From IMG/VR virus record IMGVR_UViG_3300002494_000025, positions 1 to 64,000 of that record: a stretch of DNA of 64,000 bases, one strand, 5' to 3'. The notes under the pieces are model-generated. The model was given only the letters and a program-made list of their open reading frames with translations. It was not told the DNA's origin and did not search any database. Both the position numbers and the translations under genes were made by a program. The DNA comes from a virus. The number at the start of each line of letters is the position of its first letter. The stretch's first letter is position 1. Of this stretch, positions 34,469-62,053 are shown one piece after another.

Positions 34469-36196
34469 TTAATTTACAACAGACACTTCTATTGTAGAGA
34501 GATTGGTATCATAGTCTTTCTTAATTTGAACATTTACGTATTCAAATGGAATTTCCTGAATATTGTTGTTACTGATTATTACCTGATAGTCATATTGTTT
34601 TGCAAAGTCATAAAGTAATTGTAAAATTTTCAAAACATTTGAACCATCAACACCATTAAAGAAATCATCAAAAATTAATACTTTGAGTTCAGGTGCTGTT
34701 TTGAATATATTTAAGATTGTAAGAATTGTAAGAATAAAGATAATTGATACTTTCTTACGTTCACCATTTGATAATAGTTGATACGGTATGAACACACCAT
34801 CCCTGATAATACCGAACGAGATACTTTCATCATCGTATACAATTTCAAACTCTTCATTTTTATTCAACACATATGAACTATATGATTTAGCAATACTATT
34901 CATTTTACTGATATATTGTGATAAGAAATTTTTTCGTACTGGTGACTTGACATTTAGTAGTTCAATTATCAGATTTATATGTTTTAATTTTGTATCTAAT
35001 TCTTCAACAAGTTTGTTTTTCTCAGTGATTTGTTGTTCAATTTGTTTTATGTTTTCTTCGATTTGTTTAACTTGGTTATCATTTTGTTCGATTTGTTCAT
35101 TTATCATTTTCCATACATCTCTGGCACGGTTATGTAATTGTTTAAATTCTTGTATCTTGCTCAATTTCGTTTTCAACTCATTATACTGTTGTTCTATTTG
35201 TTTCCGTTGATTTGATGTTTTCAATAAGACTTCAATTTCGTCGTTTATTAATTGCGTATAAACATCAACATCACCTTTTGTGATTGGTCTATAACAAGTG
35301 GGACATTTTTGTAGTTCCTTTAAATGATTTAGTTCTTTTATCTTTTTTTCGTGAGTTTGTTCCGAAGTTTTCAATTCTAATAACTTTTTTTCCGTTTCAT
35401 TTATTTCATGTTTTATAGATGTTTCCATTGTTGTAACAAATTGTGTAATTTCATTACTTTTACCATTGAAATCTATCTCCAATTCAGGATTAAAGTACTT
35501 TTTTAATTCATTTAAATCGTTCATATACTTATTAAGTTCATTAACCTTTCTTTGGATTGTTTCAACTGAAAACTGTTGTTGAATATTTTTTAATAAACTC
35601 TCAAACTTATTTTTAGAAGATTTCAACGTTTCAATTTCAGACATTAATTTCGATTGTTGTGTCTGTAATGTTGATTGTTGATTTTTAATTTCCTTAATAT
35701 ACTCTTCCAAATCTTTATTATAAATGATTTTCTCAATAATTCTAAAAATTTGAACTGATGATAAGTCATATATTTGTTCTTTGTTCGGAATAAATACATG
35801 TGTAAGTGAATATATCTTATTAATATCTTTTATAATACTCTCTACAAAATAGTCAATTTTATCTTTTATTCTAATATTAAAAATATCTGGTTGAATTGTT
35901 ACATCAGATTTTCGACTATCAAATATTCTTGTTATAGTATACGTATGTGTATCATCTTTTTTAAATGTGACAGAAATCTTGGAATCACCTTCCGAACCAA
36001 TACGTTTCAAACTTTTAAACGATTTTATTATATTTAACGTTGACAATATACTATAGACAATTGAAGTTTTACCAGAACCGTTTGTAATGTTAGTATCATT
36101 ACTGTTTAATAACACGATGTTGTAATTATCAGGGATTTCAACACTAACATTATCATATACAGTAATATTCTCAAGTTCGATACGAGAAATTTTCAT
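34469..36196 (-). CDS. SbcC/Rad50/T4 gp46-like ATPase
   Basis: NGSGKTS, coiled coils, CPTC zinc hook, LSNGE signature, LIFDD Walker B; no TAG. Confidence 0.92.
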   Translation of the reverse strand: MKISRIELENITVYDNVSVEIPDNYNIVLLNSNDTNITNGSGKTSIVYSILSTLNIIKSFKSLKRIGSEGDSKISVTFKKDDTHTYTITRIFDSRKSDVTIQPDIFNIRIKDKIDYFVESIIKDINKIYSLTHVFIPNKEQIYDLSSVQIFRIIEKIIYNKDLEEYIKEIKNQQSTLQTQQSKLMSEIETLKSSKNKFESLLKNIQQQFSVETIQRKVNELNKYMNDLNELKKYFNPELEIDFNGKSNEITQFVTTMETSIKHEINETEKKLLELKTSEQTHEKKIKELNHLKELQKCPTCYRPITKGDVDVYTQLINDEIEVLLKTSNQRKQIEQQYNELKTKLSKIQEFKQLHNRARDVWKMINEQIEQNDNQVKQIEENIKQIEQQITEKNKLVEELDTKLKHINLIIELLNVKSPVRKNFLSQYISKMNSIAKSYSSYVLNKNEEFEIVYDDESISFGIIRDGVFIPYQLLSNGERKKVSIIFILTILTILNIFKTAPELKVLIFDDFFNGVDGSNVLKILQLLYDFAKQYDYQVIISNNNIQEIPFEYVNVQIKKDYDTNLSTIEVSVVN

Positions 36197-36292
36197 ATTT
36201 CAACCCCCTTTATACTTTATTTAACAAATACTATCCAATAATAATATGTTGAAATTTACAGTTTATTTTAAAATTTAAATGAGGTGACATAA

Positions 36293-36928
36293 ATGGAATA
36301 TAAAGATGGGTTTGTATTTATAGATGATAGTAATAAAGTTGTAAGAGACACACTATAGTTCGTAAAATAGTCGATGTTTAACTTATATTCATTACAAAAA
36401 GTACATCAATTTTATTTGAAATTTGAATCAAACGGTAAAATAACACAGGATTTTATAAATCTACTCAATGAACGATACCAATCAATTCAAAATTAGATAC
36501 CACAATGGAAGTTAGAAACAAATACTGTTACATATTCAGGAACTGAGTACCACATACCAACTGTCTTAACCATAGAAAATCCAACAGTCACAGTAACTTT
36601 TTTAGAAACAAAAAATTTTGACATTTATAAAACATAGAAAAAATATTTGATTGTTGATAGAAACATATCCAATACGGACAATTTACTCAACAATAAATAC
36701 ATCATACACAAACCGACAAATTACTTTACTAAATTGGATGTTACATTATTTAGTTAGAAATATAAACCAAATAATAATGATATATCCCCCTATCTTACAG
36801 TCACCTTCTACAATTTGTACATAAAAAATATTTCTATTGATACTCAACTCAATGTTAACAACACTGAATTAGTATATACAACAATAGAATTTGCATATAC
36901 TCAAGTATTCTTAACACCAAGAGATTAA
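36293..36928 (+). CDS. Tail-tube/baseplate (T4 gp19/gp54-like) paralog 1, recoded
   Basis: VTVTFLE..NFDIY, VTFYNLY..NI, TIEFAY; TAG-only interruptions; RBS GAGGTGA. Confidence 0.6.
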
Positions 36929-36945
36929 CTATAGAGGTGACATGA

Positions 36946-37623
36946 ATGTAGTCAGAAAAGGATAATTTACTAAAATATGATGATATGATTCATAAACTAT
37001 AGGACGATGTATAGTTTTTTAATTCATTCAAAATTATGGTTAGGAAGGTTAATTTTGAGGAAAACCTAAATAATAACCTCAATACACTATTACAAAAAAT
37101 CATGAGTAATTAGGTTTTATCCGCAAATAAACCAAATTATGAACGTGAGACATACTATGTTAGTGATAACGATATTATCACACGTTTAAATTTCATATTC
37201 TTTTTCGTAAACAGTATCGAAGGTCTTCCATCACCTCATATAGAAACAGAAGAGTATAGTTTTATTGGTAGAAAGTATCAAATACCAAAACATCAAACAG
37301 TAGAACATGAGTTAAGATTTACATTTATTGAATTGGAAGGTTTATACATTTACCGTCTGTTTACAACATATTTGTTACAAATATTTGACTATTATAATGG
37401 TTATTTGAAACTTAATGATAGAACCCAATACACTTTTGATTTGTCAGTATATGGACAATATAAAGATACATTCTATGGTCAAGATGTGGACTAGTACTTT
37501 ACAATTAATTTCTACAACGTATTTCCAGTTAATGTAAACTTTGGAAACGAATTACAATTTAATAATACAAGTTATGTAACAACAACTGTAACATTCAGAT
37601 ATGATTATTATGAACAAATATAA
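36946..37623 (+). CDS. Tail-tube-like paralog 2, recoded; begins ATG-TAG
   Basis: RBS GAGGTGA at the same spacing as its neighbour, M*SEKDN...; LPS..IE...F.G, FTFIE, NFYNVFPVNV, VTFRYDYY. Confidence 0.7.
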
Positions 37624-37655
37624 TAAATTGTCAATCTCAATGGGGGTGAATTTAA

Positions 37656-38369
37656 ATGGCACTATCAGACTTAACAAGATGGAAATTAACCACTGATAAA
37701 ACGTTATACGATTACACAGCATATCCAATTTTCCAAGTAATTGAGTTAGAAACAACCAACAATTTTATGAATTATGCAAAAAATGATACAATGTGGAAAA
37801 AGTTTCAAAATAATCAAAATAATCAAGATAATTCTTAGATCACTGATGACAGTAAATTGTTAGCCACACTACAAAATGTATTTGTACGTGCTACCGCTAT
37901 AACATTCCCAGGATTTACCTGTGAAGTAACGGAAATACCACAACAGTTTTCGAATATAAAAATATAGAACAAAGTTTCATTCACAAACGAAATAACATTC
38001 AATTTTGTGGAAGACGCAGAAAATAACATATTCAAATTCTTTAAATCGTGGTTAGATCAAATACTTCTAGTGGATTATCAAACACCTGTGTACGGTGCAC
38101 AATACAATATTGCAAATAACTACAAAGTAAATATCACATTCGGTATATATAAAATTAATAACACAATAATGAATACTGTAACAAAATCAACAGGTTATAA
38201 TGGAAAAGATGGTTTTGATAGTACCAACATAATATTCAAATTTAAACTTCACGGTTTCTTCCCCAAATCGATCAACAATCCAACATATGATTACACAACA
38301 TTTGAAATCGTAACACGTGATGTTGGGTTTACATTCGATTATATAGAACTATTAACACCATCACTATAA
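37656..38369 (+). CDS. Tail-tube-like paralog 3, recoded (2 TAG)
   Basis: AITFPG, ITFNFVED, FKSWL, LHGFFPKSI, VGFTFDYI. Confidence 0.7.
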
Positions 38370-38391
38370 TAAGAAACAAGAGGTGATATAA

Positions 38392-39078
38392 ATGTTAATT
38401 AACAATTTATTACAAAGTACAAAAAGTACACCAAGTGTTTCAACAACTACATATTTTCTCGTAGACCTTACAAATTTTGTTAATATAATTGATAAGACTG
38501 GTAATTTAAAAAACACAATAAACAAATACGTTAAATCTGTTACACTCCCAGAAAGAAAAGTCGATACCACATCTATTGAGGGTTAGATGTTATCAGTACA
38601 ACATGCCCAACTTAAACAGACTTTTGATACGTTTCAAATCACATTCTTTGATGATAAAAACTTTACAATCAGAACAAATCTTCTAAAGTACATGTTAAAA
38701 TCAGTTTTCGATTATACCAATCTTGTCTACAAAAGTGCAAGTACCTACAAATGTGATATTACAGTTTACGTTATTAACAACTTCTTGGGCAGTGATGTAA
38801 CACATACAGTAACAATAAATAATAATAATGTAAATACCACTGATATATCAACAATTGAAAATATTATTAACAACACACCAACAAACACGTAGATAACCAC
38901 AGTACCAGTATATATCTATAGATTCTATGGTTAGTTCCCAACAGAAATACCAGAAATAACATTTTCCACAACTGATGAATTAGAACCAACAATTACCGTA
39001 ACATTTACATACGATTGGTACAAAATCGATACTACAAATACTGAAAAAATAAATTTGGCACAACTTAGTTTAATCTAA
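38392..39078 (+). CDS. Tail-tube-like paralog 4, recoded (3 TAG)
   Basis: VKSVTLPE, FQITFFDD, RFYG*FPTEI, VTFTYDWY. Confidence 0.75.
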
Positions 39079-39095
39079 TTGAGGTGGTGATTTGA

Positions 39096-39857
39096 ATGGC
39101 AATCAGTATAATAAATAGTGTTAACACATACAATGTTAGTACATACGACGCATTTAACAAATAGAAACTGTTTAGTAGACTACCTGTTGCATATTCAAAT
39201 GATATATCGTTCATCTTACGTGGTGAAGTAGTAAATGAATCAAATAATAATACATTCACTTCAAAACTTAACAACTCGTTTACAAGTTCAATAATGATAC
39301 GACTCAAATCGATATCATTACCAACTATGTCATTGGAAACAACAGAAATCCCCCATCTGTCATTCAACGCTAAAATGTAGTCTAAACCCACACTTGGTGA
39401 TGAAATAACAGTTTCAATAGTTGAAGATGCAAATTCAAATGTGTTCCTCAACTTTAAAGATTTTATTGAAACTTATTATAATTGGGTAATTTAGGTTCCA
39501 AACAATCCCAACTATAGTATCAAATTCCATATTGAATAGTTCTTAACACCATTGATACCAACTACTGTAAACAATATAAATTATTCATATTTATCGACAG
39601 CAAACACAAGTAGAAATAATGTAGCTGCAATAACAACTGTAAGTAATAATACAAACAACTTTACTGGAACACTTGGTACACGTATATTCAAAATAACACT
39701 GTATAATCCAATTATAAAGAACTTGAATCATCAAACCATGGATTATTCAAGCACCGAACTGATCAATAGAGATATTACAATTGGGTTTGAGTACTTTGAG
39801 TTTATTACATATATGTATGATAATAACAATCAACTAGTAAATGCACCATTGTTCTAA
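39096..39857 (+). CDS. Tail-tube-like paralog 5, recoded
   Basis: KSISLPT, ITVSIVED, ITLYNPII, IGFEYF. Confidence 0.65.
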
Positions 39858-39892
39858 ATTTAGAATCATTAACTAACAGGGTGGTGATATAA

Positions 39893-40609
39893 ATGTTGAT
39901 CAATAGTGTATATAGTGATCAAAATAACATTTCTTATACTGTTACAGATGTGTTTAGACCAAATGCGTTTATAGTTAGTTTTACAGAATTCAAAAGTGAT
40001 AGTAAATTGTTTGAACAACTAAATAGTTTTATTAACAAATACTTAAAAGTATGTAATATTATAGATGATGATAAAAATAATAAACCATTCACCGAAATAT
40101 CAAACAATTTTTTTGGTACTAACAATAACAGTAATACTACTACTACTATTACATTCCATCAAAACATGTTACCATTACTTGCAAAAAGTGTAACATTACC
40201 AGATATAAACATTGAAGTAAGTGCAATTGACTTGGGATTATGGAAAACACAAAGAATAGTAAATAGAAAAACATTTGATACTTTCACGATAACATTCCAA
40301 GAGTTACGTGGTTTACCAGTTAGGTTATATTTCTTAAAATGGATGTTTGCGTACATAATAAACCCGTGGAGAGGTTATCATGTATAGCCAGATCTATATA
40401 AATCAATCATCAACGTACAAGTATTAAAGAATATAGATAAATATGATCCACTTTATGTAGTCAAATTCTATGGTTAGTTCCCAACAAATTTGAATGAACT
40501 AATACTATCATATGAAAACAGTGACATTTTAAACACTGAAGTGACATTTGTATACGATTACTTTGATATTGAACAAACACAACCAAAACAAGAAGAACAA
40601 AAAAAATAA
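39893..40609 (+). CDS. Tail-tube-like paralog 6, recoded (2 TAG)
   Basis: RPNAF, AKSVTLPD, FTITFQE...R.YF.KW, KFYG*FPTNL, VTFVYDYF: a T4 gp19/gp54-like pattern. Confidence 0.78.
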
Positions 40610-40629
40610 CAATCAACAACAAAAACAAA

Positions 40630-40658
40630 AAAGGTGGGGTAATCAAATCCCCACCTTA
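40630..40658. terminator. Bidirectional hairpin terminator
   Basis: AAGGTGGGG..CCCCACCTT between convergent genes. Confidence 0.7.
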
Positions 40659-40681
40659 AATTTTATTCATTTACCTAACAA

Positions 40682-40945
40682 TTAGTTAGTGGGTATCACA
40701 ATACTTGGTTTTTGTTGTTGAATTTCTGTAATCCGACTTTTTACATATTCTTCCAACTCTTTATTGAGATCATCAACACTTACATTTAATAATTCTCCTA
40801 CTTTCTTTATCAAAAATTCAATCACAAGACTATCAATGTTTGACTTGTTCAGTAACATTAATACTAACTTTCTCAACTCTTCAATCATAAGTTTTGTTTC
40901 ATCAATATTACCAACATCAGAACCTCCACCAATTATCACACCCAT
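40682..40945 (-). CDS. Hypothetical protein
   Basis: RBS GGAGGTG; preceded by the shared upstream motif; no TAG. Confidence 0.6.
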   Translation of the reverse strand: MGVIIGGGSDVGNIDETKLMIEELRKLVLMLLNKSNIDSLVIEFLIKKVGELLNVSVDDLNKELEEYVKSRITEIQQQKPSIVIPTN

Positions 40946-42926: not shown

Positions 42927-43406
42927 ATGAGTGGTAGGTACTCACGACAAAAGGGTTATAGAATAGAATATGAACTCACCAAACTTTTACAATCTTATCA
43001 CATTAACAATAAACGTGTACCATTGAGCGGTGGAAGTTGGTTAAAAGGTGATATTATCATTGAACACAATAACAGAACATATATATGTGAAGTAAAAGGT
43101 GGTAGTAACAAATTTAAAATAATATATGACAAATTTCTAACATATAGAGATACAACAAACAAGTCATGTGTCTATCTTGGTGATTATGTTCTGTGTGATA
43201 TCCCAACATTTGTAAAACTTCTAAATAACGAAACAAATATCATTAATAGTATTAGTGACATTTTGAACATAACCAAACTAAATATGATCAATGATTATAT
43301 CGATAAAAAAGATGTATTGTTCATCAAACGTGACAGAAAAGAATATCTGGTAATATTTAGAAAACAACTATTTAACTCATCAAGTGGGGGTGTTACAAAT
43401 GGATAA
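42927..43406 (+). CDS. Holliday junction resolvase (Hjc-like PD-(D/E)xK nuclease)
   Basis: SRQKGYRIEYEL, RVPLSGG..KGDI, CEVK; contains no Ala and no TAG. Confidence 0.8.
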   Translation: MSGRYSRQKGYRIEYELTKLLQSYHINNKRVPLSGGSWLKGDIIIEHNNRTYICEVKGGSNKFKIIYDKFLTYRDTTNKSCVYLGDYVLCDIPTFVKLLNNETNIINSISDILNITKLNMINDYIDKKDVLFIKRDRKEYLVIFRKQLFNSSSGGVTNG

Positions 43407-46050: not shown

Positions 46051-47229
46051 TCACCCCTGTTGATTGGATAATGAATTTAAATTTACAACATATGTATTGA
46101 ACAAATTGATCAACAACTCTTCATCATATGTAATTCCTTTGTTCCTTAAACTTTGGATATATTCCATAAGATATTCAACAAAATACTCTTCAAAAGTAAG
46201 ATACTTTTCTTCTACAATTTCAGTTTCTTGTTGTAATTTATTATCTTTTAATAAATTACTTAATGTTATTAACTTTTTTACATGAGAATTATTACTTAGT
46301 TTATTGATTACAACATCATCAATATTTGAATTATCTGTTAGATGTAGTTTAACAACGTATAGATGATGGTTATCATTTAAAAATGGTTCATACTTATCAT
46401 ACTCATTACTCATAAACTCTAAATACTTAACTTGGTGTGGCCACTCATTAAATGTTAATTGATATGTGTTAAGATCAAATTCATAATATCCGTATATATT
46501 ATTATGTACCGTTGTTTTTTCACTAAAACTCTTTGGGAAACATGTAATAACATAATAATTATCATCTGGAATTCGAATATCCTTAGTGTGATAATGTCCT
46601 TGAAAGAACTTGTAATTGAGGTTACTCGTTTGTAGGAACATTCTCAACTCGTTGTAATTGAGATAATGTGGATTGTTAGTTACATCAACATTTTCAAATT
46701 GTGTAATAATTTCTGAAATTTCAGCATGTGATATAAACAAATGTAATGACCGATTGTGATATGTATTTGTGGTTATAACATTTTTTATTTTCTCAATTAC
46801 GATATCAGTCAGTGTATTATCAACAATATCTTTGAAGAACTCTTTGGGGTAATATGGAATAAAATGGATATACAGGTCTGGAGAAAATTGAATTGTGGAA
46901 ACTTCCTTCACAGTAATCGTACGTTTATACGTACTTAACAGATTAGTTACATTGACAATTTGATTCATTATATCGTGATTTCCGTTGATTAAGTATACTT
47001 TCTTAAACAAACTAACTATTTTACCGTACAATAGCATATCAAAGTACGTAATTTTACTAATATTATCGAACAAATCACCCCCAATTAATAAAACATCTTC
47101 ATTAGGGGTTAGTTGTAAATTTAAAAAACTTTTCAATAATTGAATACTTCTTTCTGACATACTTTTTTTATTACTAAACAATGTGTTACTCTGTGTGATA
47201 TGTAAATCCGATACTATGTACAATTTCAA
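46051..47229 (-). CDS. SbcD/Mre11/T4 gp47-like metallophosphoesterase nuclease
   Basis: SDLH, GGDLFD, GNHD, SH, GHYH motifs. Confidence 0.9.
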   Translation of the reverse strand: MKLYIVSDLHITQSNTLFSNKKSMSERSIQLLKSFLNLQLTPNEDVLLIGGDLFDNISKITYFDMLLYGKIVSLFKKVYLINGNHDIMNQIVNVTNLLSTYKRTITVKEVSTIQFSPDLYIHFIPYYPKEFFKDIVDNTLTDIVIEKIKNVITTNTYHNRSLHLFISHAEISEIITQFENVDVTNNPHYLNYNELRMFLQTSNLNYKFFQGHYHTKDIRIPDDNYYVITCFPKSFSEKTTVHNNIYGYYEFDLNTYQLTFNEWPHQVKYLEFMSNEYDKYEPFLNDNHHLYVVKLHLTDNSNIDDVVINKLSNNSHVKKLITLSNLLKDNKLQQETEIVEEKYLTFEEYFVEYLMEYIQSLRNKGITYDEELLINLFNTYVVNLNSLSNQQG

Positions 47230-47299: not shown

Positions 47300-49948
47300 T
47301 TAAATTATTCCCCCGAATAATGTGTACAGTTGTTGAACATTGTTATTGGTTGTTACAGTACTCAGTATATCGTTAATAATTTTTTCAGACATAAAACTTT
47401 CAAATCGTCTAACAAACTGTTCATAGATTGAAAGATAATCGACTTTTATTGTTTTGTCATTAGTTAGAATTTCTTTTACAATCTTGGTATCATTTTCCTT
47501 AAATGAAAGGTAACCACTTATTTCAGTAACCTTTTTTCGTTTCTCATTAAAAATTTCTCTTGCCACATTAAAATATTTTGATGTATTAAGTATTTTTACA
47601 GGAATTACATAAATTTTTTGACCAATAAGTTCGTTATCGTCATAATCAATATCCATAACATCTTCCGCGATATACTTGAATAACTTCCAACCACGTAGAT
47701 GATATGGATCAACTTTATACTCCAGCGTTGTAAGTGTTTTCGACTCTGCAATTTCTTCAAGATGTGTAGTTTCAAGTTCGTTATAAATTTGTACAAATAA
47801 ATCCTTCATGTCTTTTTCAGATATATTATCATTGGTTACAAGTAACATAAACAATTGACGTAGTTTATTTTTCAAAAATTGTGGAAAATCAGACCTTGCC
47901 AAGTCAACACCTTTATATATTTCCTTCCCATGGTAATCAAACCCGTAGTAACGTTTTTTCACACCAAAGAATTTTACACGTTTAAACACTTTATCAATTT
48001 CCATTCTCAGTGTATTGATTTGTCTTAGTTCTTCATCACTTATATTCTGTATAATTTCCTTCAAAAAATCTGGTATTTTGTTATTTACATGTTCCCTTAT
48101 ACGTTCAGCACATACTAATGTAACTTCTTCGTTATCCATTATTACCGGATTTATAAATATAAACTCGATAAATACACTGTCTGTATCACCGTATACTACT
48201 TTAGTTAAAAATGTATACTTAAACCCATTTATATCTTCTCTCCAAGTTTTATCATCAACATAGTCAATAACACTTCTTATCAAATACCTTCCTACAGATG
48301 TAATTGATAGTGCAACATCTGTATTGTAAAATGTAAAATATTTTGTTCCGAACACCCCATAAATACTATTTGCCAAAATTTTATAGTTTAGTTGTCTATT
48401 ATAGTATTCCATATTATCGGGGTGTTCTTTACTTAGTTTCTTATAGTAGAATCTCATTTCTAATATATTTCTTATCATCTTTCGTATAAGTGTATCTTTT
48501 TGTAAGAAGTATACGTCACGAACACCTGTTAATTCTTTGTTGATATGTGTATATTTCACAGGTTCTGTGGGTTTCTTTACTGGTTGGATATCTATACTGC
48601 ATGTCAGTATTATATTTGGGTATAGTGATGCAAAGTCTAAGACTACGACGTTTTTATGTACTCCATCATCCGGGGTATGTACATATGCACCGGTGTAACT
48701 TTCATCGTTGTTTTCCTCGGGATCTATATTCTTTACACCAGACGTAAAAGGCAACAACACATTTTCCTTCCATGCAAATAGATTCAAATAACCTTCGACT
48801 GTGTATAAGGTACTCATGAGTTTATCAAGATTTATTGGAACAATTTCGTTAAATGAATTCAACAGTGTAATTAATTTTAATTTTTCTTCGAGTTTGACCA
48901 GTATCTCAACATCACGTATTATGTAACTTAAAAAACGTTTGTAATCATCAATATGTAGATATCCCATCTTTTCTGTTTTTCCAAATTCTAATCCATTGAT
49001 TTTTGCAATATTATCCAGACCCCAACTTGTTGGTGTCTCTGGTATAAATTTTTCGTATAATTCTTTATAATCAATGAAATAAATCATTGGTACATTTATG
49101 TAATATACAACACCACGTCCACCTTGTGCAAATTCCTTAAAGTATGGTTTACTTATCTTATACTCATTGGAATCAAAGGATAAAAAATCATTGAATAATC
49201 CATGTTGAATCAGTCGTTTGACCAAGTATGGAATATCATACATGTTAGAAAACCATCCTGTAATTATGGATGGTTTTTGTATTTTCACATAAATTAAAAA
49301 TTTATCCAACAAGTCCACTTCATCTTTTGCAATGGTGATTTTAGTCTTTATGTTGTACTGTTGGTGGTATTCTCTTTCATATTCAATTACATCCTTAGGA
49401 TTATTAACTTTAATAAATTCAGTGTTAATGATAGTATAATACGTATTGTCGGTATTGTTATACCAGGTGATAGAAGTAATTGGCATCATCGCTTGTTGAG
49501 GTTTGTTCCATCCGTGTTTAAGTGCTTCCGGTGTAGAATACACTTCTATGTCCAACATCCAATATGTTCTATCGAATTGAATATCCTCAACAGTAAACAA
49601 TCCTACATCTTTAATAAAATTTCCCACAATAAGTTTTCGCTTTTTCAACCCTGCTAAATATCTCACAAATTCATTCTTAAATTCTCTAAATGCATAATAA
49701 TCATGTTTGTCATCTTTTAGAAAGACTTCATAAATTGATTCACCATTCAACCCAGTAAAGTTTGTCTTTTTTACACCGATATTAATGTTTTTCTCCTTCA
49801 AAAATGATTTCAAATACTGTAAACCTTCCTCTACCAAATAGAAGGAAGGTTTCATTTTAAGAATATTTAGTTTATCTTCCGTCGTGTGTATCAAAAATTG
49901 ATATTTATCTTTATCATAATACAAATTCTTAATTTTCATATAAACCAT
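47300..49948 (-). CDS. Family B DNA polymerase with 3'-5' exonuclease
   Basis: LDIEV ExoI, YDIPY, DFASLYP, K...NSIYG, YGDTDS, KKRY. Confidence 0.96.
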   Translation of the reverse strand: MVYMKIKNLYYDKDKYQFLIHTTEDKLNILKMKPSFYLVEEGLQYLKSFLKEKNINIGVKKTNFTGLNGESIYEVFLKDDKHDYYAFREFKNEFVRYLAGLKKRKLIVGNFIKDVGLFTVEDIQFDRTYWMLDIEVYSTPEALKHGWNKPQQAMMPITSITWYNNTDNTYYTIINTEFIKVNNPKDVIEYEREYHQQYNIKTKITIAKDEVDLLDKFLIYVKIQKPSIITGWFSNMYDIPYLVKRLIQHGLFNDFLSFDSNEYKISKPYFKEFAQGGRGVVYYINVPMIYFIDYKELYEKFIPETPTSWGLDNIAKINGLEFGKTEKMGYLHIDDYKRFLSYIIRDVEILVKLEEKLKLITLLNSFNEIVPINLDKLMSTLYTVEGYLNLFAWKENVLLPFTSGVKNIDPEENNDESYTGAYVHTPDDGVHKNVVVLDFASLYPNIILTCSIDIQPVKKPTEPVKYTHINKELTGVRDVYFLQKDTLIRKMIRNILEMRFYYKKLSKEHPDNMEYYNRQLNYKILANSIYGVFGTKYFTFYNTDVALSITSVGRYLIRSVIDYVDDKTWREDINGFKYTFLTKVVYGDTDSVFIEFIFINPVIMDNEEVTLVCAERIREHVNNKIPDFLKEIIQNISDEELRQINTLRMEIDKVFKRVKFFGVKKRYYGFDYHGKEIYKGVDLARSDFPQFLKNKLRQLFMLLVTNDNISEKDMKDLFVQIYNELETTHLEEIAESKTLTTLEYKVDPYHLRGWKLFKYIAEDVMDIDYDDNELIGQKIYVIPVKILNTSKYFNVAREIFNEKRKKVTEISGYLSFKENDTKIVKEILTNDKTIKVDYLSIYEQFVRRFESFMSEKIINDILSTVTTNNNVQQLYTLFGGII

Positions 49949-52553: not shown

Positions 52554-53672
52554 TTTGACAATCACATAAATGATAATATTATACTCAATACAATAATTGA
52601 ACTACAATCAAATGATACCAACAATGATTATATTTTGTATACAAATGATGTGTAGTTAATCTTAAAATAGAAAATGTTCAATGTTGAAACATATACAAAT
52701 ATTAAATTTATTGACATTGAAAATTTTCATACCCACCAGTTCAGAATTGTTAAGATAACAAACGACGATTTTGAACGTTTAATACCTGTCATAGAACGCA
52801 ATCGCTTCGAATCAAATGACATAATTATCAATCGTACTGAGTATAACGTTGATCATAATTCAATTGATTCATATTTCTACATTACAAATGAAGAACAAGA
52901 TGTAAAATACTTATTCAGAAAATTAGATGGTAATACATAGAGGTTTGTATCTATAGAGAAACTATTACATGCATATCTAAGTGAATATCAATACGAAAAC
53001 TATGGATTAAAGATAATTAAACCACGTGACGATGAACAGTTATAGCTACTTGATAGTTTCTTTACAGATACACTAATAATATCATTATAGAAGTCTGGTA
53101 CTGGAAAGACATTGTTATAGTTGTTTTATTAGATAACAGAAGTACTTAAAAATAGACTAAATAAAACGTTAATACCAAAAACATATTCAAAAATTATCTT
53201 TATCGCCAATAATTCAGTTATCCAACCCCGTAAAGAGTTGGGTTTCCTACCAGGTAGTAAACATGAGAAAATATTACCATTTATGAGTGGTATCATCGAT
53301 AATTTAGATTTTCTCTTTAATGGAAATATTAATAATGACTTTGATATAACAAAAACAGATGTGAATAGTCTATTTGAAATCCGACCAATTTAGTACATCA
53401 GAGGTTCATCAATAAATAATTAGATCGTAATTGTTGATGAAGTTCAAAATCTAACATGGCACGAATTAAAAACAATAGTGACACGTGTGAATACATCAAC
53501 ATCAAAATTAATTCTCATTGGTGATATACATCAAGTCGATGAAACAATGTAGATAGATTATCTTGGTATTATGAAATTGATCAATGTATTGTTTGATTCA
53601 AACCTACAAAATTGGAATTATATACCACTTACCACAAGTTATAGAAATATGTTCACAAACACACAAACATAA
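52554..53672 (+). CDS. phoH: PIN-PhoH (PhoH2-like) ATPase, recoded; start codon uncertain
   Basis: PIN tail NDNIIL...ILYTNDV*LILK*K; PRDDEQL*LLD; [12 protein letters not shown]; [15 protein letters not shown]; [22 protein letters not shown]; GDIHQVD. Confidence 0.88.
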
Positions 53673-56220: not shown

Positions 56221-56238
56221 CTCCCAAAAATTAAATAG

Positions 56239-56553
56239 TTAATTATTCTGTACCTCAAGTTTAATTGTTACCCAACCGAACATTTTTTTGATGTTATTAT
56301 ACTCAGGATGTGGTTCAAATCGTAATACAGGTTTAACTGGTTTTATTGTGTAGATTTCATTTAATGGAATTATTTTCCACTCATTACTATCTTGTACACG
56401 AACCAACAACACTGTATTTTTATTTTTTATTAAATTTGTTCCAACTAGATATGGTTCACAGACAATATCGTTTATTTGTATACATTCTTTATTTACTATG
56501 TTATTTTCCAATTGTTTGATTAACTCCCTTTGTGTATATACACTCATACTCAC
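56239..56553 (-). CDS. Hypothetical, degenerate WYL-like protein
   Basis: CEPYLVG....N.VLL...WK.I.L.EI....P...F.P.PEYN parallels the WYL protein at 59937-60293. Confidence 0.5.
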   Translation of the reverse strand: MSMSVYTQRELIKQLENNIVNKECIQINDIVCEPYLVGTNLIKNKNTVLLVRVQDSNEWKIIPLNEIYTIKPVKPVLRFEPHPEYNNIKKMFGWVTIKLEVQNN

Positions 56554-56571
56554 ACCATCTCCTCATATAGT

Positions 56572-57741
56572 TTAATTCAATACTTTTAGTAATTCACGTG
56601 CAAGAAAACGGATAACTGGGACTGAAACTGAATTACCTGCTTGTTTGTACAGTTTACTTGTGGGATATGGTTGATTTCTATAAGTGGTGGGTAGTTTATA
56701 ACCATTATCAACAGGGAAACCTTGGATCTTAAACGCTTCTTTTGGTGTTATCATCCGGATTCCGTCTGGAACTCGTACAATAGTCATGTTAGTTGGATGT
56801 GTAGATGATGCGACTAATGCAGGACACAGTCCAGATTTATTTTTTCGTACATAGGAATTCCTTCTAATTTGGTAGAACCAATACATTTCATCAACTTCCT
56901 CTTCAAGATTGATTCTATTCTTTGGTCTTTTATCTGGTGGTAATTTCTCATACTCTTCCTTTGATACAAACAGATATGGATACTTTTCTTTTGTATAATA
57001 ATATTCAGGGTTATCTTTGATATTGATGTTAAGATCTAGTACATTCATACGTTCTTCCATTAATTGTTGAGGTGTTTTCCTGATTTTATATTTTTTAAGA
57101 TTGTTACCATCAAACAATGTAAATTTATCAACATCTTCTTTATTCAGAAATGCAAGAATATAGATTCTTGATCTGTTTTGTGGTAGTTCTGTATAATCTT
57201 TTGTGTTTATAACAGCATCTTTGACGGTATATCCCAAATCTTCAAGTGTAGTTCTAATAACTTTGTATGTATTTCCCCCATCATGTCGTTTTAAATGACT
57301 AACATTTTCCAGGAATAAAACACGTGGTTTTTTACCGAACACCTTTTCATGTTCAATTACAACATCCACGATTCTCCAGAACATTTCCCCCCTTGGGTCT
57401 TCAAATCCAAGTTTCTTACCTGCCACTGAGAAAGGTTGACATGGAAATCCAGCAGTTAGGATGTCAACATGATGAGAAAACATATCGTTCTTCAACTTCT
57501 TGTAATAACGAATTAGTTTAATGTTTTTTGCTAATTCCGGTTTAAGTATTTTTACAATATCACCATGTAGAATTCTGTGGTTGAAATTAGTTTGTAACGT
57601 TACAACTGCATAATTATCTATTTCATTTGACCAAATGATCTCGTATTTTTTATTTTCAACATCCTGGGTGGCAAGTATGAACCCCATTTCTATTCCACCC
57701 ACACCTGCAAACAGACTACCAACATAAAATAACTTCTCCAT
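56572..57741 (-). CDS. DNA (cytosine-5) methyltransferase
   Basis: FAGVGG, GFPCQPFS, ENV, PQNRSR, R.ITPKE...QGFP, YKQAGNSV motifs. Confidence 0.95.
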   Translation of the reverse strand: MEKLFYVGSLFAGVGGIEMGFILATQDVENKKYEIIWSNEIDNYAVVTLQTNFNHRILHGDIVKILKPELAKNIKLIRYYKKLKNDMFSHHVDILTAGFPCQPFSVAGKKLGFEDPRGEMFWRIVDVVIEHEKVFGKKPRVLFLENVSHLKRHDGGNTYKVIRTTLEDLGYTVKDAVINTKDYTELPQNRSRIYILAFLNKEDVDKFTLFDGNNLKKYKIRKTPQQLMEERMNVLDLNINIKDNPEYYYTKEKYPYLFVSKEEYEKLPPDKRPKNRINLEEEVDEMYWFYQIRRNSYVRKNKSGLCPALVASSTHPTNMTIVRVPDGIRMITPKEAFKIQGFPVDNGYKLPTTYRNQPYPTSKLYKQAGNSVSVPVIRFLARELLKVLN

Positions 57742-57839
57742 TATCCACTACCCCCATAACCAATCTAATAATATGTTAGATTTTGTAATTAAAAAAACGG
57801 GTGTAATGTAAAAAACAACACCCGACATAAACATTAAAA

Positions 57840-59108
57840 TTATATCCGCATCGGTATTAACACATAAAAGTATGTAAGCTCACTATCAACTGGTGATATT
57901 TTGACTGGACTGACATTATCGACAAACTTAAACATACATTTACTTGTGTCTATATGTTTTATGATTTCGCTTAACAGTTTGGGGTTAAAACTAATAATCA
58001 AGTCACTTCCCTGTTTATCCACAATATCGAGTTCATCAATAACTTCACCAAAATCGGAACTTCTTACTATAAATCTTGTAATGTTATTAGTAATTTCCAG
58101 TACAAGTTTTTCCCCACTTTTGTTTGACAAGACTGATATATGTTTCAATGTCTCTTTCAATTTCTCTGTGTCGAACACTATCATAGTACTTGTGTTAATG
58201 TTAACAACTCGTGAATAGTCTGGAAATTTATCTTCAACAGTCCTGGTGATAATTTTTATATCGCCGGTATCAAACATCACAACTGAGGTATTGTATGATG
58301 TAGACACATTTATTTCTGGTTCTGTGGTTGTAGTTACTAATTTGTATATCTCTTTCATCGTTTTAAGATCTACAAGGAATTGAATAGACTGATTAATTGA
58401 TGTTTGAATTCTATCCGATGTTAGTCCTAGTCTATAACCATCAGTACCCACCAAAGTTAACTCATTATCTTTATTGACTAACCACAATACTGAATTCAAA
58501 TTCCTTAAATTGTAATCTGTGGATGTACAAAACAGTACCTTATCAATTAGTTCTTTTAATATGGATGTTTCTACTGTAAAAACATTATCAGTTTCACTTA
58601 CAAGAGTCTCAATATCTGGGAACTTATTCTCTTCAGAGTATGTTGTAAGTGTATATTTGGATTTTCCACTCTTGATAATTAGTTTACCATCATCTGTATG
58701 ATACATAAATGTAAGAACGTCATCTTTATCAAAACTTTTAACAATATCAAACAATAGATCTGATCTTACAAGAAACTTAGTTTCGTTACCACTACCACCA
58801 CTACCACTGAACTCGTATTCACTAACATTGATACTTGTTACAATTGTAGTTTGAAGATTTGTTGATACTAACTTAACCACTGGTTCCTTATCCATAAAAC
58901 CATTTTCAACTTTGAACAATATACATTGAAGTGTTGGATCAACTGTTCTAGAATTGGTAATATCATCAAGTATTTCAATTTTGTTGATAATATGATATTG
59001 TTTTACATTAAATGACACCACATTCTTTTTCAACATACTTTCTTCATTTAACCTCCTCTCAAAATTTTGTATGTTATTAACAATATACACAAGTTGTACA
59101 TTTACCAT
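57840..59108 (-). CDS. dnaN: DNA polymerase III beta sliding clamp
   Basis: P.L..IL, STNL, KFPD, GTDGYRL, KFPDY.RV, ISFNPK.L, YVLIPMRI; start uncertain. Confidence 0.9.
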   Translation of the reverse strand: MVNVQLVYIVNNIQNFERRLNEESMLKKNVVSFNVKQYHIINKIEILDDITNSRTVDPTLQCILFKVENGFMDKEPVVKLVSTNLQTTIVTSINVSEYEFSGSGGSGNETKFLVRSDLLFDIVKSFDKDDVLTFMYHTDDGKLIIKSGKSKYTLTTYSEENKFPDIETLVSETDNVFTVETSILKELIDKVLFCTSTDYNLRNLNSVLWLVNKDNELTLVGTDGYRLGLTSDRIQTSINQSIQFLVDLKTMKEIYKLVTTTTEPEINVSTSYNTSVVMFDTGDIKIITRTVEDKFPDYSRVVNINTSTMIVFDTEKLKETLKHISVLSNKSGEKLVLEITNNITRFIVRSSDFGEVIDELDIVDKQGSDLIISFNPKLLSEIIKHIDTSKCMFKFVDNVSPVKISPVDSELTYFYVLIPMRI

Positions 59109-59119
59109 CTTTAATACTT

Positions 59120-59899
59120 TTAATACCCTCTTTTTTGTCTATCAAAATTTTCGTGATTTTTCGTCATATAATGAATTATCAAATCTTCCAAACTTCTTTT
59201 TCCATCAAAATTAATAAACAACTCTGATAATATCTCATGTAATTCATTTGTAACTTTCAAAAACTCGGAATAATCAATATTATAATCCTGTTCTTTATAT
59301 GTTTTCCAATATTTCCATGGGAATAAATTTAAAAGTTTGGACAATTTAACAAATCCTTCAAACACTAGATCATTATATGTTGTAACGTTTTTGTATGGTG
59401 TGTCGAATGTAAAATTAAATGTTGACATCATATCGTTAACAACCTTTTCCACAATAACCTTTTGGTATGTTTTATCACTTACATAATTATCAATCTGATT
59501 ATTTAATTTATCGTTAATTATATTAACTATCAGTAACAATTGTAACAAGAAGTGATAAATATCAATTACTTCATAACGACATTCAACTTTGTACTCACTT
59601 AGTCTAACAATATGTTCGGCATTTGGAAGTTCATCAATCCAATTTTTAATTTCAACAAACTCATCAAACATTGCAAGTATTGTCTTTTCAGCCAGATCTT
59701 TGAATGTTAATCTAGATTGTTCCCAAGTTGGAAGTATTTTTCTTTTTATGATATCAATCATTAGAGAGTTCTGTAAATCAACCATATAGTACAAAATTGG
59801 TTTGTTAGATTGTTTTTTAAATTCCTCAATTTGTTGTTTCATTTGTGGATAGTATTGTATATGTATCTCAAACTGTGACTGTCGGTGTTGTCCCATCAT
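59120..59899 (-). CDS. Dimeric all-alpha dUTPase
   Basis: DEFVE, EVIDIYHF, PWKYWK, KNHENFDRQKRGY. Confidence 0.85.
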   Translation of the reverse strand: MMGQHRQSQFEIHIQYYPQMKQQIEEFKKQSNKPILYYMVDLQNSLMIDIIKRKILPTWEQSRLTFKDLAEKTILAMFDEFVEIKNWIDELPNAEHIVRLSEYKVECRYEVIDIYHFLLQLLLIVNIINDKLNNQIDNYVSDKTYQKVIVEKVVNDMMSTFNFTFDTPYKNVTTYNDLVFEGFVKLSKLLNLFPWKYWKTYKEQDYNIDYSEFLKVTNELHEILSELFINFDGKRSLEDLIIHYMTKNHENFDRQKRGY

Positions 59900-59936
59900 T
59901 TATTACCCCCTTTTATCTTAATGACATTCTATTCTG

Positions 59937-60293
59937 TTATTGTCTCTTGACATTTACGATGATTCTGGTCATTGCTTTATCATCTGGATTGTACTCTGGT
60001 CGTTGTGTTGGATCAAATTTTACCAAGATACCCTCAGACTGTAATGGTTCAACGTACTCAATCAACTCAACGTTAAACAACTTCCACCCTTCGGAATTTC
60101 CTGAAGTACTATAACCACTTTGTTGAAATGCACGTAATAATGTGTTACCAAGTCGGTTTACACCCAATACATATGGTTCCACAATACGTTCCCGTGGTTC
60201 ACCACGATATTTCAGTTTTACTACAGTTCTTTTTCTAATACTTTTCACCAGTACATTAATAATCTCATTTACACTCATCACCATACTTATCAA
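59937..60293 (-). CDS. WYL-domain protein
   Basis: VKLKY...RERIVEPYVLG...LRAFQ...GWKLF.V..I. Confidence 0.8.
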   Translation of the reverse strand: MISMVMSVNEIINVLVKSIRKRTVVKLKYRGEPRERIVEPYVLGVNRLGNTLLRAFQQSGYSTSGNSEGWKLFNVELIEYVEPLQSEGILVKFDPTQRPEYNPDDKAMTRIIVNVKRQ

Positions 60294-60343
60294 CCTCCTT
60301 CTTTTAACTTGTGTCTAATAATAATATATTGGATTTTGCAATT

Positions 60344-62053
60344 TTAACTGTCTAAACTCTCAAATAGTTGTTTGTTAAAATTTTCAATTTCATAAATCAT
60401 TAATTCATCAATATTTCTAAGTTCATGTTCATCGAATCTATCAATACCGAACAACATATCAAACACCTCGATTTTGGGATTGAGTATTTTGTTTAATACG
60501 TACTTATCAAATAACGATAATAAATTTATCACAATCCCGTCATTAACTTTCTTGTGACGTAGTCTATATATTCTTCCAACTCGTTGATTCATTTTAGCAG
60601 GATTGTATAGTTGGTCGTAATTAATCAGTACATCCAAATCAAGATTTACACCGGTTGATAACACATCTGTTGCAAGGATTATATACTGTTTTAAATTTTT
60701 TAATTGAGAACGATTGATTTGTTTTTTACTTGAAAACACAAATATGTTTTTATTTTTGAATATTTCATTCTTGGTAAGTAGTTCATACAGATGGTTAATG
60801 ACAGTTTCATAAAATGAGAAAATTATAACTTTTTTGTTACTGTATGATTGAAGAATGTCAAATATTTGTTTATCTTTGGGAGACATATAATTATCCCAGT
60901 CTACAGTTTTAACATACTTAGACAGTTCTGGTAGATATTTAGACTTATGTACAGTTTGTTTAATGATGACTGGATTATTTAATATCTCACGTAAATAGAT
61001 GAACCGTACAATGTTTTTAACAAGTGGGTGTGATATATTATTTGTTTCTTGTTTGAGGATTTGTATCATCTGTTTCTGAAGATTTTCCATACCAACATCA
61101 ACAGAAAAAGTATGAATATTTTGAAGGTATAATTTATCGATAACAACAACATCTGTTTTCCTCCTTCTTATATAAACTTTTGTTTGTTGTAATATAGATT
61201 TTAATTCATCCAAATTTTGATATTCGTACTTAGTGAACTTACCATTTTGAATTGGTGTTACATACCGTTCTATAAGTTTATTGGTCCAAATATCCATACC
61301 GTAAAACATAACTTGTAACAAATTAAAGAGTTCAATAACATGATTTTCAATTGGAGTGGCAGTGGATACAATAGTGAATGTCTCCGGTAAGAACTGGTTA
61401 ATAAACTTTATTACTTGTGTAACTTGGGTGTTGGAATTTTTTATTTTTTGTGCTTCATCTAATATTAACAATGTATATGAACTGTTATTTTTAATTTTGT
61501 TGAGGAAATCTACAATTAAACTAACCTGTAATTTGTCAGTTGTTCTAAACAAATCATAGTGTGTTACAATTAGATTAAATTTATTCAATTCATTTGTTGT
61601 ATAAAGTGATTTTTTATCAGTTAACAAAACAATGTTGAGGTACTTATGTAAATTATATTTTTTAATTTCTTCAAGAACATCAAATTTAACATTTTTAAGT
61701 GTAATATAGATTGTAGTAAATGGTTTGTTTATCGACTTGAAATAATCAGTTAACAATAATGTTGAAGACAGTGTTGACAGTGTCTTACCTAACCCAGTAT
61801 CGTCTGCCAATATAACGCCATGTTTTTTGAACAATATACCATTGAATATCTCATTTAAAAACTGTAAGAATTCAACTTGATGTTGTTGTAGTGTAATTTT
61901 GTACTTTGACTGTATCTTAATCTTATCAATATCAAGTCTTATGTTGGTGAACGTACTAATATATCTATTGTCACTTGGTGATATGTTATTTAAAAACAAG
62001 TATAAGTTGGTACTATATTCTTTTATGTGTTCAAACATAAATTCACCATCCAC
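60344..62053 (-). CDS. SNF2-family helicase
   Basis: ILADDTGLGKT, LDEAQKIKN, TATPIEN, GVNL, YNPA...QRVGRIYR. Confidence 0.92.
   Translation of the reverse strand: MDGEFMFEHIKEYSTNLYLFLNNISPSDNRYISTFTNIRLDIDKIKIQSKYKITLQQHQVEFLQFLNEIFNGILFKKHGVILADDTGLGKTLSTLSSTLLLTDYFKSINKPFTTIYITLKNVKFDVLEEIKKYNLHKYLNIVLLTDKKSLYTTNELNKFNLIVTHYDLFRTTDKLQVSLIVDFLNKIKNNSSYTLLILDEAQKIKNSNTQVTQVIKFINQFLPETFTIVSTATPIENHVIELFNLLQVMFYGMDIWTNKLIERYVTPIQNGKFTKYEYQNLDELKSILQQTKVYIRRRKTDVVVIDKLYLQNIHTFSVDVGMENLQKQMIQILKQETNNISHPLVKNIVRFIYLREILNNPVIIKQTVHKSKYLPELSKYVKTVDWDNYMSPKDKQIFDILQSYSNKKVIIFSFYETVINHLYELLTKNEIFKNKNIFVFSSKKQINRSQLKNLKQYIILATDVLSTGVNLDLDVLINYDQLYNPAKMNQRVGRIYRLRHKKVNDGIVINLLSLFDKYVLNKILNPKIEVFDMLFGIDRFDEHELRNIDELMIYEIENFNKQLFESLDS

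Follow-up and report, generated by a model that had tools for sequence, protein, structure and literature searches.

The window analyzed here is a 64-kb stretch of DNA, the first 64,000 nucleotides of one virus record of 135,374 bp (IMG/VR record IMGVR_UViG_3300002494_000025), and the phage DNA in it comes from a hot-spring metagenome. It contains a large part of a phage genome from which the dinucleotide GpC has been purged, in which several replication and repair proteins are almost free of alanine, and in which the stop codon TAG is read as alanine. The record is classed as a provirus by IMG/VR, with a completeness of 76% (CheckV), and consists of two compartments: flanks at position 1 to ~24.8 kb and at ~130.4–135.4 kb, with 36–43% GC and normal or raised GpC, and a central part of ~105 kb (~25.1–130.3 kb of the contig) with 28% GC, which is GpC-purged and TAG-recoded. 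In the window, this phage part occupies positions 25074–64000 (the first in-frame TAG is at 25074), and it continues to ~130,300 of the contig. It encodes its own TerL, tail sheath, T4-type baseplate protein, gp23-type capsid, family B DNA polymerase (PolB), DnaN, and RecA, together with a primase, PhoH, and thymidylate kinase, and is an independent T4-like myovirus of ~105 kb. Cultured relatives searched for by the capsid protein gave only matches of 29% identity or less. Nothing in Pfam was found for nine further small genes of the replication region, and no nucleotide-hypermodification genes were seen among the genes examined.

The left module (1–24600) served as a contrast: it has 42% GC, uses the standard code, contains 7.6% alanine, and is siphovirus-like by Pfam (TerL, SPP1 portal, SU10 capsid, and a tape measure of 2447 amino acids). 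The right contig end carries NrdG, NrdD, and a full-length MutS. A hot-spring metagenome was the only public run found to contain the stretch. The depth of its Logan contigs was 48 in the left compartment vs 328 in the phage part at 25518–32000 (7-fold), and these contigs break into short pieces at 24.6–25.5 kb, where a repeated module lies. Because of this difference in depth and the breaks at the junction, the two compartments are regarded as different replicons or populations; the junction is either that of an actively replicating provirus, or an assembly error or chimera threaded through the shared module. The left segment is therefore an external control and not the same genome as the phage, and the finding on the purge is unaffected. 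The PolB sequence of the window is also recorded on a contig of 236,408 bp (P0273), which fits an original contig with more host flank.

Depletion of GpC at the DNA level

GpC was measured as a symmetrised odds ratio, which is already corrected for base composition. The value was 0.24 for positions 25500–64000 and 0.23 for 34469–62053, vs 1.32 for positions 1–25500 of the window, and it stayed at 0.11–0.42 in every 5-kb step to 130 kb of the contig. In the interval 34469–62053, 132 GpC and 429 CpG were found, vs 556.8 expected for each. The initial annotation, made from the letters of the sequence, had counted 4 GpC and 15 CpG by hand in dnaN and argued from this that low GC content alone was an insufficient explanation. 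Both counts were reproduced (28.9 are expected for each), and an odds ratio so far from 1 after correction for composition bears out the argument.

The depletion was resolved by codon phase in 100 called genes, using position-specific expectations. The ratio of observed to expected GpC was 0.32 at codon positions 1–2 (384 vs 1214), 0.15 at positions 2–3 (55 vs 368), and 0.19 at the 3–1 junction (94 vs 503); it was also 0.19 in non-coding DNA (30 GpC in 61 intergenic pieces with a total of 8.5 kb). The depletion is thus ~4-fold overall, rising to 5- to 7-fold at sites with a synonymous alternative, and it is not limited to codon positions 1–2, where it is in fact weakest. As the initial annotation had noted, Cys, Ser, Gly, and Arg choose codons of the form NGT: the counts were 6/129 for TGC/TGT, 23/688 for AGC/AGT, 20/633 for GGC/GGT, and 6/179 for CGC/CGT, that is, 55 NGC vs 1629 NGT in the phage, compared with 161 vs 677 in Campylobacter phage CP220 (27.9% GC).

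All ten NGCN contexts were depleted (0.11–0.63), including AGCC (0.11), AGCG (0.12), AGCT (0.15), CGCA/TGCG (0.17), CGCG (0.18), GGCC (0.27), and TGCA (0.63), and 568 GpC remain in the phage genome. The four GC-containing trinucleotide classes were the four most depleted, and GAC/GTC was normal at 0.93. CpG had an odds ratio of 0.71, with a deficit confined to contexts that contain GpC (GCGC 0.07, GCGA 0.14, ACGC 0.17, and CCGC 0.24); the other six CpG contexts were at 0.87–1.57. The purge was equally strong in genes with and without TAG and on either strand, and was uniform over early and late genes. Among the transition products of GpC, GT/AC was at 1.26 (up to 1.66 at the 3–1 phase) and GA/TC at 0.99; the GT/AC excess would equally follow from synonymous replacement of NGC by NGT. 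Because the depletion is found in all phases, in non-coding DNA, on both strands, and in all contexts, the target of the pressure is the GpC dinucleotide itself at the DNA level, and not alanine codons.

Several narrower targets were considered and rejected. GCNGC, or another longer word, was rejected because GCNGC was seen 8 times vs 3.1 expected from the frequency of GpC. A CviJI-like RGCY target was rejected because the YGCR contexts CGCG and CGCA/TGCG are as depleted as RGCY. An RNA-level target was rejected because sense-strand GCN and NGC are equally depleted in the non-alanine phases. Tolerance of TGCA as a DNA-level signal was also rejected, despite TGCA being the least depleted context: GCA was at 0.58 in the alanine-codon phase vs 0.15 and 0.24 out of phase, and the Cys codon TGC was at 0.07; T before GCN reflects a generic bias for T at a junction with G, NCA generally exceeds NCT (CA 1.61 vs CT 0.57 at positions 2–3), and GCA was not preferred in the related contig L017 described below (16 GCA, 23 GCT, and 23 GCG). 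The earlier remark that TGCA is frequent among surviving GpC is true of the genome as a whole (173 of 568), but not of dnaN, where the four sites are GGCG, AGCG, AGCT, and TGCG. GATC (0.45) and CTAG (0.48) were also under-represented relative to a Markov-2 expectation (contig 26700–130300), and AG/CT was low overall (0.77).

Base composition was controlled with two sets of loci. The first consisted of 68 standard-code loci of at least 6 kb from PolB scans (L007, L017, and L018 were left out; loci of at least 4 kb were measured, and those below 6 kb were dropped from the regression). Their GpC odds were 0.58–1.21 (median, 0.84), and regression gave an alanine percentage of 16.0 × GC − 0.65, with a residual standard deviation of 0.76. 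The phage is thereby predicted to contain 4.0% alanine; 1.25% was observed as GCN codons (z = −3.6) and 2.49% with TAG counted (z = −2.0). The second consisted of 56 TerL-linked viral loci of at least 6 kb, with GpC odds of 0.81–1.40, of which 29 are below 33% GC and keep 4.6–7.1% alanine. CP220 had GpC odds of 1.18 and 4.68% alanine, and four Fervidobacterium loci measured were at 0.81–1.04. One could hold that there is nothing special in the phage, low alanine and low GpC following from 28% GC and codon bias, and the PolBs of Marinitoga (2.1–2.9% alanine) and the locus L019 (2.2% GCN overall) are indeed low in alanine. This account is highly improbable, being refuted by the controls: the lowest GpC odds among the 124 control loci and CP220 was 0.58, AT-matched standard-code loci keep 2.2–7.1% alanine, so equally low alanine is not a property of such phages, and the low-GC sliding clamps described below contain 4.3–5.8%. 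Low GC content explains neither the GpC depletion nor the alanine loss.

Loss of alanine from proteins

Every standard alanine codon starts with GC; alanine is therefore the one amino acid that pays for a purge of GpC. The initial annotation had proposed that pressure against GpC starved the proteome of GCN alanine, and this was borne out by the observed 1.25% vs the predicted 4.0%. Its hand counts of alanine in five TAG-free genes were all reproduced; genome-wide, alanine is reduced ~3-fold rather than abolished (1.38% in 41 TAG-free genes).

The clearest case is the DnaN sliding clamp (57840–59108, minus strand), with Pfam DNA_pol3_beta domains 1–3 and neither GCN nor TAG in 422 codons. Its best match in the PDB was 1vpk (2e-64), and in an alignment to this structure the replacements read by eye from the sequence (ATD to STN, ASDG to GTDG, RLA to RLG, and IAFN to ISFN) are visible. 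Clamp homologues from Thermotogota contain 3.5–7.5% alanine in 31 of 31 cases, and 4.3–5.8% at the eight loci of lowest GC (29–32%), vs 0% in the phage. At 18 clamp columns with at least 50% alanine in Thermotogota, the phage has Thr in five, Ser, Asn, and Ile in three each, and Leu and Gly in two each, but never Val.

The Holliday-junction resolvase-like nuclease of the PD-(D/E)XK type (42927–43406, plus strand) also has no GCN in 159 codons; it was assigned by Pfam PDDEXK_15 (2.9e-5, under the curated cut-off) and by PHROG 244/6591, annotated as resolvase. The SbcD/Mre11-like phosphoesterase (46051–47229, minus strand; Pfam Metallophos, 3.5e-10) retains one GCN in 392 codons (0.3%), and the SbcC/Rad50-like ATPase (34469–36196, minus strand; PHROG 77, SbcC-like, 3.9e-24; PDB Rad50 3qf7, 1.3e-4) retains four in 575. 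The SNF2-family helicase (60344–62053, minus strand; Pfam SNF2-rel_dom and Helicase_C) has five in 569. The clamp, the resolvase-like nuclease, and the Mre11-like nuclease, with zero or one alanine each, constitute a natural experiment on the extent to which a proteome can dispense with one amino acid.

Other proteins kept more of their alanine. PolB (47300–49948, minus strand; Pfam DNA_pol_B, 5.5e-44) is TAG-free with 17 GCN (1.9% alanine), and A389, A418, A437, and A681 are invariant in seven sequences of its clade. A C5 cytosine DNA methyltransferase (56572–57741, minus strand; Pfam DNA_methylase, 1.1e-67), the catalytic region of which aligns to M.HhaI, contains 3.3% alanine, which is normal for its family (median, 4.3%). 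In its gene, all 13 GpC fall in alanine codons, with no GpC in the other phases, vs 32.8 GpC expected in total. The gp23-type major capsid gene (contig 110866–112305) has 26 GCN (5.4% alanine) and no TAG, and 26 of its 31 GpC are in alanine codons, with only five elsewhere; the most abundant virion protein thus avoids the reassigned codon. Hence, synonymous GpC was purged completely, replaceable alanines were replaced (by Thr, Ser, Gly, and Asn), and essential alanines were kept as GCN, for instance in the motifs of PolB and the methylase and in the whole major capsid protein.

The clamp also bears on the host. The phage DnaN is 43–44% identical to the chromosomal DnaN of genomes named Fervidobacterium, and the MutS on the right flank is 84–85% identical to Fervidobacterium MutS; because of these two matches, Thermotogota appear to be the most likely host. 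The clamp has the appearance of a bacterial β clamp taken from a host, here in combination with a family B polymerase. In the hot-spring sequencing run, a match to window positions 24689–24725 was found, the loose ends of which on both sides read as a 30-nucleotide repeat of the CRISPR (clustered regularly interspaced short palindromic repeats) type, which suggests that a spacer in the community targets the shared tail-fibre module at these positions. The 30-mer repeat had no match (with up to three mismatches) in five genomes searched, three of them named Fervidobacterium, and is evidence neither way on the host.

TAG as an alanine codon and its distribution among relatives

Coverage of the low-GC part by open reading frames of at least 150 amino acids was 0.33–0.45 with the standard code, 0.84–0.90 with TAG as a sense codon, and 0.41–0.55 with TGA as a sense codon. 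Outside the window, tRNA-Ala(UGC) (contig 118483–118558) and a tRNA(CUA) (contig 118731–118806) were found by ARAGORN, the latter having an acceptor stem of G1-C72, G2-C71, and G3-U70, and A73 as the discriminator. G3:U70 is an established identity element of alanyl-tRNA synthetase (AlaRS), and this enzyme does not read the anticodon. A transfer-messenger RNA (tmRNA) with the tag ANEYIPLAA directly follows tRNA(CUA), so the cluster spans contig 118483–119172; the tmRNA gene is GpC-poor (7 vs 21.2 expected), and the two tRNAs are not.

The meaning of TAG was read from alignment columns. For TerL, 150 representatives were listed, 34 of more than 700 amino acids were dropped, and three with less than 2.5% alanine were set apart, giving 113 distant homologues. 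Of the 22 TAG columns, 20 were usable, and over these the summed frequency of alanine was 8.12 vs a background of 1.27, that of serine 1.54, and that of glutamine 0.26 vs 0.76; alanine was the commonest residue in 12 of the 22. The PhoH-like ATPase (52635–53672, plus strand; Pfam PhoH, 1.7e-32) has 10 in-frame TAG, and since its homologues have a PIN domain, its true start is probably upstream. Among 103 distant homologues, alanine was commonest in two of its TAG columns (97/103 and 69/103) and glutamine in none. Four columns hold other small residues (G 67 with A 33; C 67 with A 23; G 103; T 77 with S 20), three hold non-small ones (D 102, F/Y, and N 91), and one is a gap; PhoH is thus weaker evidence than TerL. 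The tRNA(CUA) with G3:U70 and the TerL and PhoH columns together show that TAG is alanine in this phage.

TAG accounts for half of the alanine codons (386 vs 384 GCN of 770), in agreement with the proposal of the initial annotation that TAG is a GpC-free alanine codon. The 59 of 100 genes with TAG contain 1.16% GCN and 1.79% TAG, vs 1.38% alanine in the 41 TAG-free genes. PolB, DnaN, SNF2, SbcCD, RecA, the primase, and the methylase are TAG-free, as is the major capsid gene, and TerL, the sheath, and baseplate-like genes are TAG-rich; the TAG-free genes presumably have to be translatable before production of the suppressor tRNA begins. Two adjacent radical-SAM-like genes (window 28725–31837) have 16 and 7 TAG, with Pfam scores of 27.6 and 20.7 bits, below the cut-off. 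A further expectation, that TAG is preferred where the preceding base would create RGC, held only in part. The base before GCN resembles that before other G-starting codons (p = 0.03), and a preceding G shows no preference (15% for TAG vs 16% for GCN), so that most of the pattern is generic codon-junction bias; an excess of A before TAG (56% vs 40%; p = 8e-9) is the only specific one.

The closest database relatives carry Q at the TAG columns, their gene callers having assumed that TAG is glutamine. The 17 closest PhoH clusters contain 0–1.5% alanine, the closest TerL homologues 0–0.2% alanine and 8.8% glutamine, and the public relatives translated in this manner (P0003–P0019, P0123, and P0124) 0–1.5% alanine and up to 8.9% glutamine. 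In such public protein sets, the sequences, profiles, and predicted folds of these phages are systematically wrong.

Relatives with nucleotide sequences were sought by PolB and TerL scans of IMG/VR, which gave one clade member and otherwise distant phages, and by one metagenome scan, which gave L017, L018, and L019. L007 and L017 are the same phage, on an independent metagenome contig with 40% PolB identity, 23–24% GC, and GpC odds of 0.30–0.32. In L017, the phase ratios were 0.29, 0.04, and 0.19, with one GpC at positions 2–3 vs 27.7 expected; there is one NGC vs 265 NGT codons, GCN is at 0.8–1.0%, 97 TAG stand against 65 GCN (60% TAG), and several genes of 300–390 codons have no GCN. The purged sequences group as a single clade in a PolB tree (own sequence, P0274, P0275, and P0276–P0278; support, 100/99), which the long-branched P0279 joins at 97/95; P0278 is identical to the L017 PolB in this tree. 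The PolBs of this clade contain 0.6–2.7% alanine, and the GpC purge is shared clade-wide.

This recurrence bears on whether the whole pattern could be an artefact of miscalled modified bases or of chimeric assembly. The 7-fold difference in depth and the breaks at the repeated module do allow that the join of the two compartments is an assembly error. The purge itself, however, is uniform over 105 kb and recurs in L017 and also among ENA, Logan, and JGI protein clusters; a C-to-T miscall would give Val at conserved alanines, which is not what is read there, and TAG at alanine columns cannot come from a miscall. We consider an artefact extremely unlikely.

L018, a metagenome contig of 12.8 kb with 33% PolB identity and 25.6% GC, gave a different picture. 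Its coverage by open reading frames rose from 0.69 to 0.91 with TAG as a sense codon, and its TerL has 22 TAG, with an alanine sum of 6.43 over 18 usable columns and alanine commonest in eight. Its GpC odds were 1.13, however, with phase ratios of 0.66, 1.86, and 1.53 (an excess at the synonymous phases), 37 NGC vs 118 NGT codons, and 2.4% GCN. PolB, the SNF2 helicase, and other genes of L018 are TAG-free, and TerL and a lysozyme-like gene are TAG-rich. In the PolB tree, L018 and L019 (the latter identical, or almost so, to P0280) together are sister to the PolBs of Marinitoga, outside the purged clade. At 12 TerL columns with at least 60% alanine in distant homologues, TAG was found at 12 in P0123 and 11 in P0124 (printed as Q), and at 7 in L018. 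TAG density in TerL was 22/540 codons in the purged phage and 22/584 in L018. Because L018 reads TAG as alanine with normal GpC and lies outside the purged clade, these comparisons indicate that TAG as alanine exists without the purge.

Cause of the depletion and comparison with known systems

The initial annotation had held that the purge drove the capture of TAG. In its full form, this account states that the purge came first, that alanine starvation selected the capture of TAG by a mutated tRNA-Ala, and that L018 lost the purge later. It has the attraction that TAG was reassigned to precisely the amino acid for which every codon contains GC, that TAG makes up 50% of the alanine codons here (386/770) and 60% in L017, and that the purged P0123 and P0124 have TAG at nearly all of the conserved-alanine TerL columns; moreover, the path from GCN to TAG needs a non-alanine intermediate such as Ser, which the purge produces. 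However, L018 has TAG as alanine at GpC odds of 1.13, outside the purged clade and at 7 of the same 12 columns, TAG density in TerL is not higher in the purged phage, TAG-free genes gained no alternative and simply lost alanine, and the blindness of AlaRS to the anticodon alone explains the choice of alanine. The purge as a driver of TAG capture is thus not established; the causal arrow is weakened but not killed, because L018 is one contig of 12.8 kb placed by a single-gene tree. We regard this order of events as possible but doubtful.

A second account involves mutation. The initial annotation had offered two causes for the pressure on GpC, namely restriction avoidance and deamination of methylated GpC. 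The former, in its classical form, does not fit, since the depletion is as strong in non-palindromic contexts as in palindromes, and 568 sites are left. In the latter, GpC cytosines would be 5-methylated by the phage C5 enzyme or by a host GpC methylase and deaminate to T in the heat of the spring more quickly than repair can follow, with passive loss of alanine. It may be examined with three copies of a receptor-binding CBM_4_9-like module. Copy A (24423–24887, plus strand) lies in the GpC-normal compartment of 42% GC and has 15 GpC; copy B (25086–25550, plus strand) lies in the purged compartment, with five GpC and 76% nucleotide identity to copy A; copy C (contig 129136–130089, minus strand) lies at the other phage end, next to NrdG, with eight GpC and 84% nucleotide identity to copy A. 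Of the 15 GpC of copy A, five are kept in copy B, five are GT, two AC, and one each CC, GG, and TT, with none gained, and alanine is replaced by Val four times and by Thr once. From A to B and A to C together, 12 of 18 lost GpC became GT or AC, with one GpC gain.

These products, including the change of alanine to Val or Thr, fit deamination, as do the complete C5 methylase of the phage, the rise of GT/AC but not GA/TC, the equality of the purge in all contexts, strands, and gene classes, and the hot-spring source. On the other hand, C-to-T change at GpC was not raised over that at ApC in this only internal comparison, albeit in a small sample (6/30 vs 14/69 from A to C; 8/30 vs 19/68 from A to B). 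The methylase is ~50% identical over its full length to many methyltransferases, the named ones from Bacillota, which suggests an ordinary site-specific enzyme; among 120 homologues listed, one is at 89% identity and the rest at 54% or less, so that it does not look like a core gene of the clade, and a homologue was not found in 22.7 kb of L017. GCNGC is not specially avoided. The NGC:NGT ratio of 1:265 in L017 vs 161:677 in CP220 would need ~60-fold hypermutability. None of the conserved clamp alanines was replaced by Val, the residues taken instead being Thr, Ser, Gly, Asn, Ile, or Leu. GpC shows no depletion in the host-like flank, and its odds were 0.81–1.04 at the Fervidobacterium loci measured. 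As the cause of the purge, methyl-deamination appears rather unlikely.

The explanation that we favor is a selective pressure directed at GpC, with TAG as alanine being older or independent and compensating; as a whole, it is given a probability of about 0.55. Selection by an agent that does more harm the more GC steps a genome has would be a likelier source of the pressure than plain hypermutation, because free sites were almost completely purged (one NGC vs 265 NGT in L017) and conserved clamp positions were overridden. A sign of such selection is that the capsid gene keeps 26 GCN but five other GpC, and the methylase gene 13 GCN and no other. The candidate agent may be a nuclease or cytosine deaminase of the host or a competitor; bacterial double-stranded DNA (dsDNA) deaminases with a GC-context preference exist, according to the abstracts of two reports (PMC10587121 and PMC9935910). 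The use of TAG as alanine would be older than, or independent of, the purge, and a partial compensation rather than its product: it may have arisen easily as AlaRS ignores the anticodon, and the TAG in 59 of 100 genes would offer a GpC-free way to write alanine.

Several points weigh against this explanation. With 568 GpC remaining, a simple GC-cutting nuclease would still cut; harm proportional to the number of sites is an assumption, and the agent is a hypothetical candidate. The GT/AC excess fits methyl-deamination too, as do the changes in copy B (7 of 10 lost GpC to GT or AC, and five lost alanines to Val or Thr) and a phage C5 methylase in a hot habitat. The capsid gene is late yet TAG-free, so that the use of TAG by late genes is no rule. 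The purge may have been lost secondarily in L018, the sequence of events depends on this one 12.8-kb contig and a single-gene tree, and the PolBs of Marinitoga separate L018 from the purged clade. Finally, the favored explanation makes it a coincidence that the purge and the recoding affect the same amino acid, which is predicted if the purge came first.

A more specific, tentative, and less probable version is that a defence or weapon in hot-spring Thermotogota reads only the DNA step GC (e.g., a dsDNA deaminase with a GC-context preference or an enzyme that nicks DNA frequently), and that the phage clade deleted GC, gave up the alanine of early proteins, even to the point of a functional sliding clamp that lacks it, and writes alanine as TAG in later genes by means of a suppressor tRNA charged by AlaRS. 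If this were true, immune pressure at the DNA level would have remodelled a proteome as well as the way in which a variant genetic code is used. To our knowledge, no anti-phage activity against GC is known, and if a GC-reading agent exists, it would represent a novel type of anti-phage or inter-phage pressure, the target of which is very short.

The suppression of dinucleotides and the recoding of stop codons are each known. In full-text searches, read at the level of abstracts, and in passages of PMC8629427, no report was found of phages with TAG as alanine or of GpC-depleted phages. Within that literature, a genome-wide GpC purge in a phage clade, alanine-free essential proteins, and a TAG-alanine code were thus not found in print, and the phages described here allow a test, in either direction, of whether constraints on DNA words can promote codon reassignment.

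The recoding known in phages is of TAG to Gln ("code 15") and of TGA to Trp, as described in the available text of Borges et al. (10.1101/2021.08.26.457843; PMC9523058); "alanine" has no occurrence in the available text of the preprint (10.1101/2021.08.26.457843). Similar to such phages, the phage of this study has in-frame TAGs in many genes, a phage tRNA(CUA), and a host flank with the standard code. Its annotated replication and repair genes are TAG-free and its terminase, sheath, and baseplate-like genes TAG-rich, in partial resemblance to such phages. It differs from code 15 in that TAG is Ala and not Gln, the major capsid gene avoids TAG, and the recoding sits on a dinucleotide purge.

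Three other systems bear comparison with the purge itself. Phages avoid restriction sites, which are palindromic words of four to six bases. The similarities are that short words are removed mainly by synonymous change and that GATC and CTAG are also modestly avoided here; the differences are that the word has two bases, that non-palindromic contexts are equally depleted, and that 568 copies are left. Deaminases of the APOBEC3 type leave a footprint of TC depletion in viruses, and in this case, too, the depleted target has two bases, and the harm would rise with every further target, which is only a hypothesis for GpC. Vertebrate genomes and their small viruses have CpG suppressed by methylation and deamination. 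Like this suppression, the purge concerns a self-complementary dinucleotide at ~0.2, is independent of frame, and leaves transition products in excess. Unlike it, the dinucleotide is GpC, no hypermutation of GpC was seen in the one internal test, and the cost is a whole amino acid, since GCN has no synonymous family outside GC.

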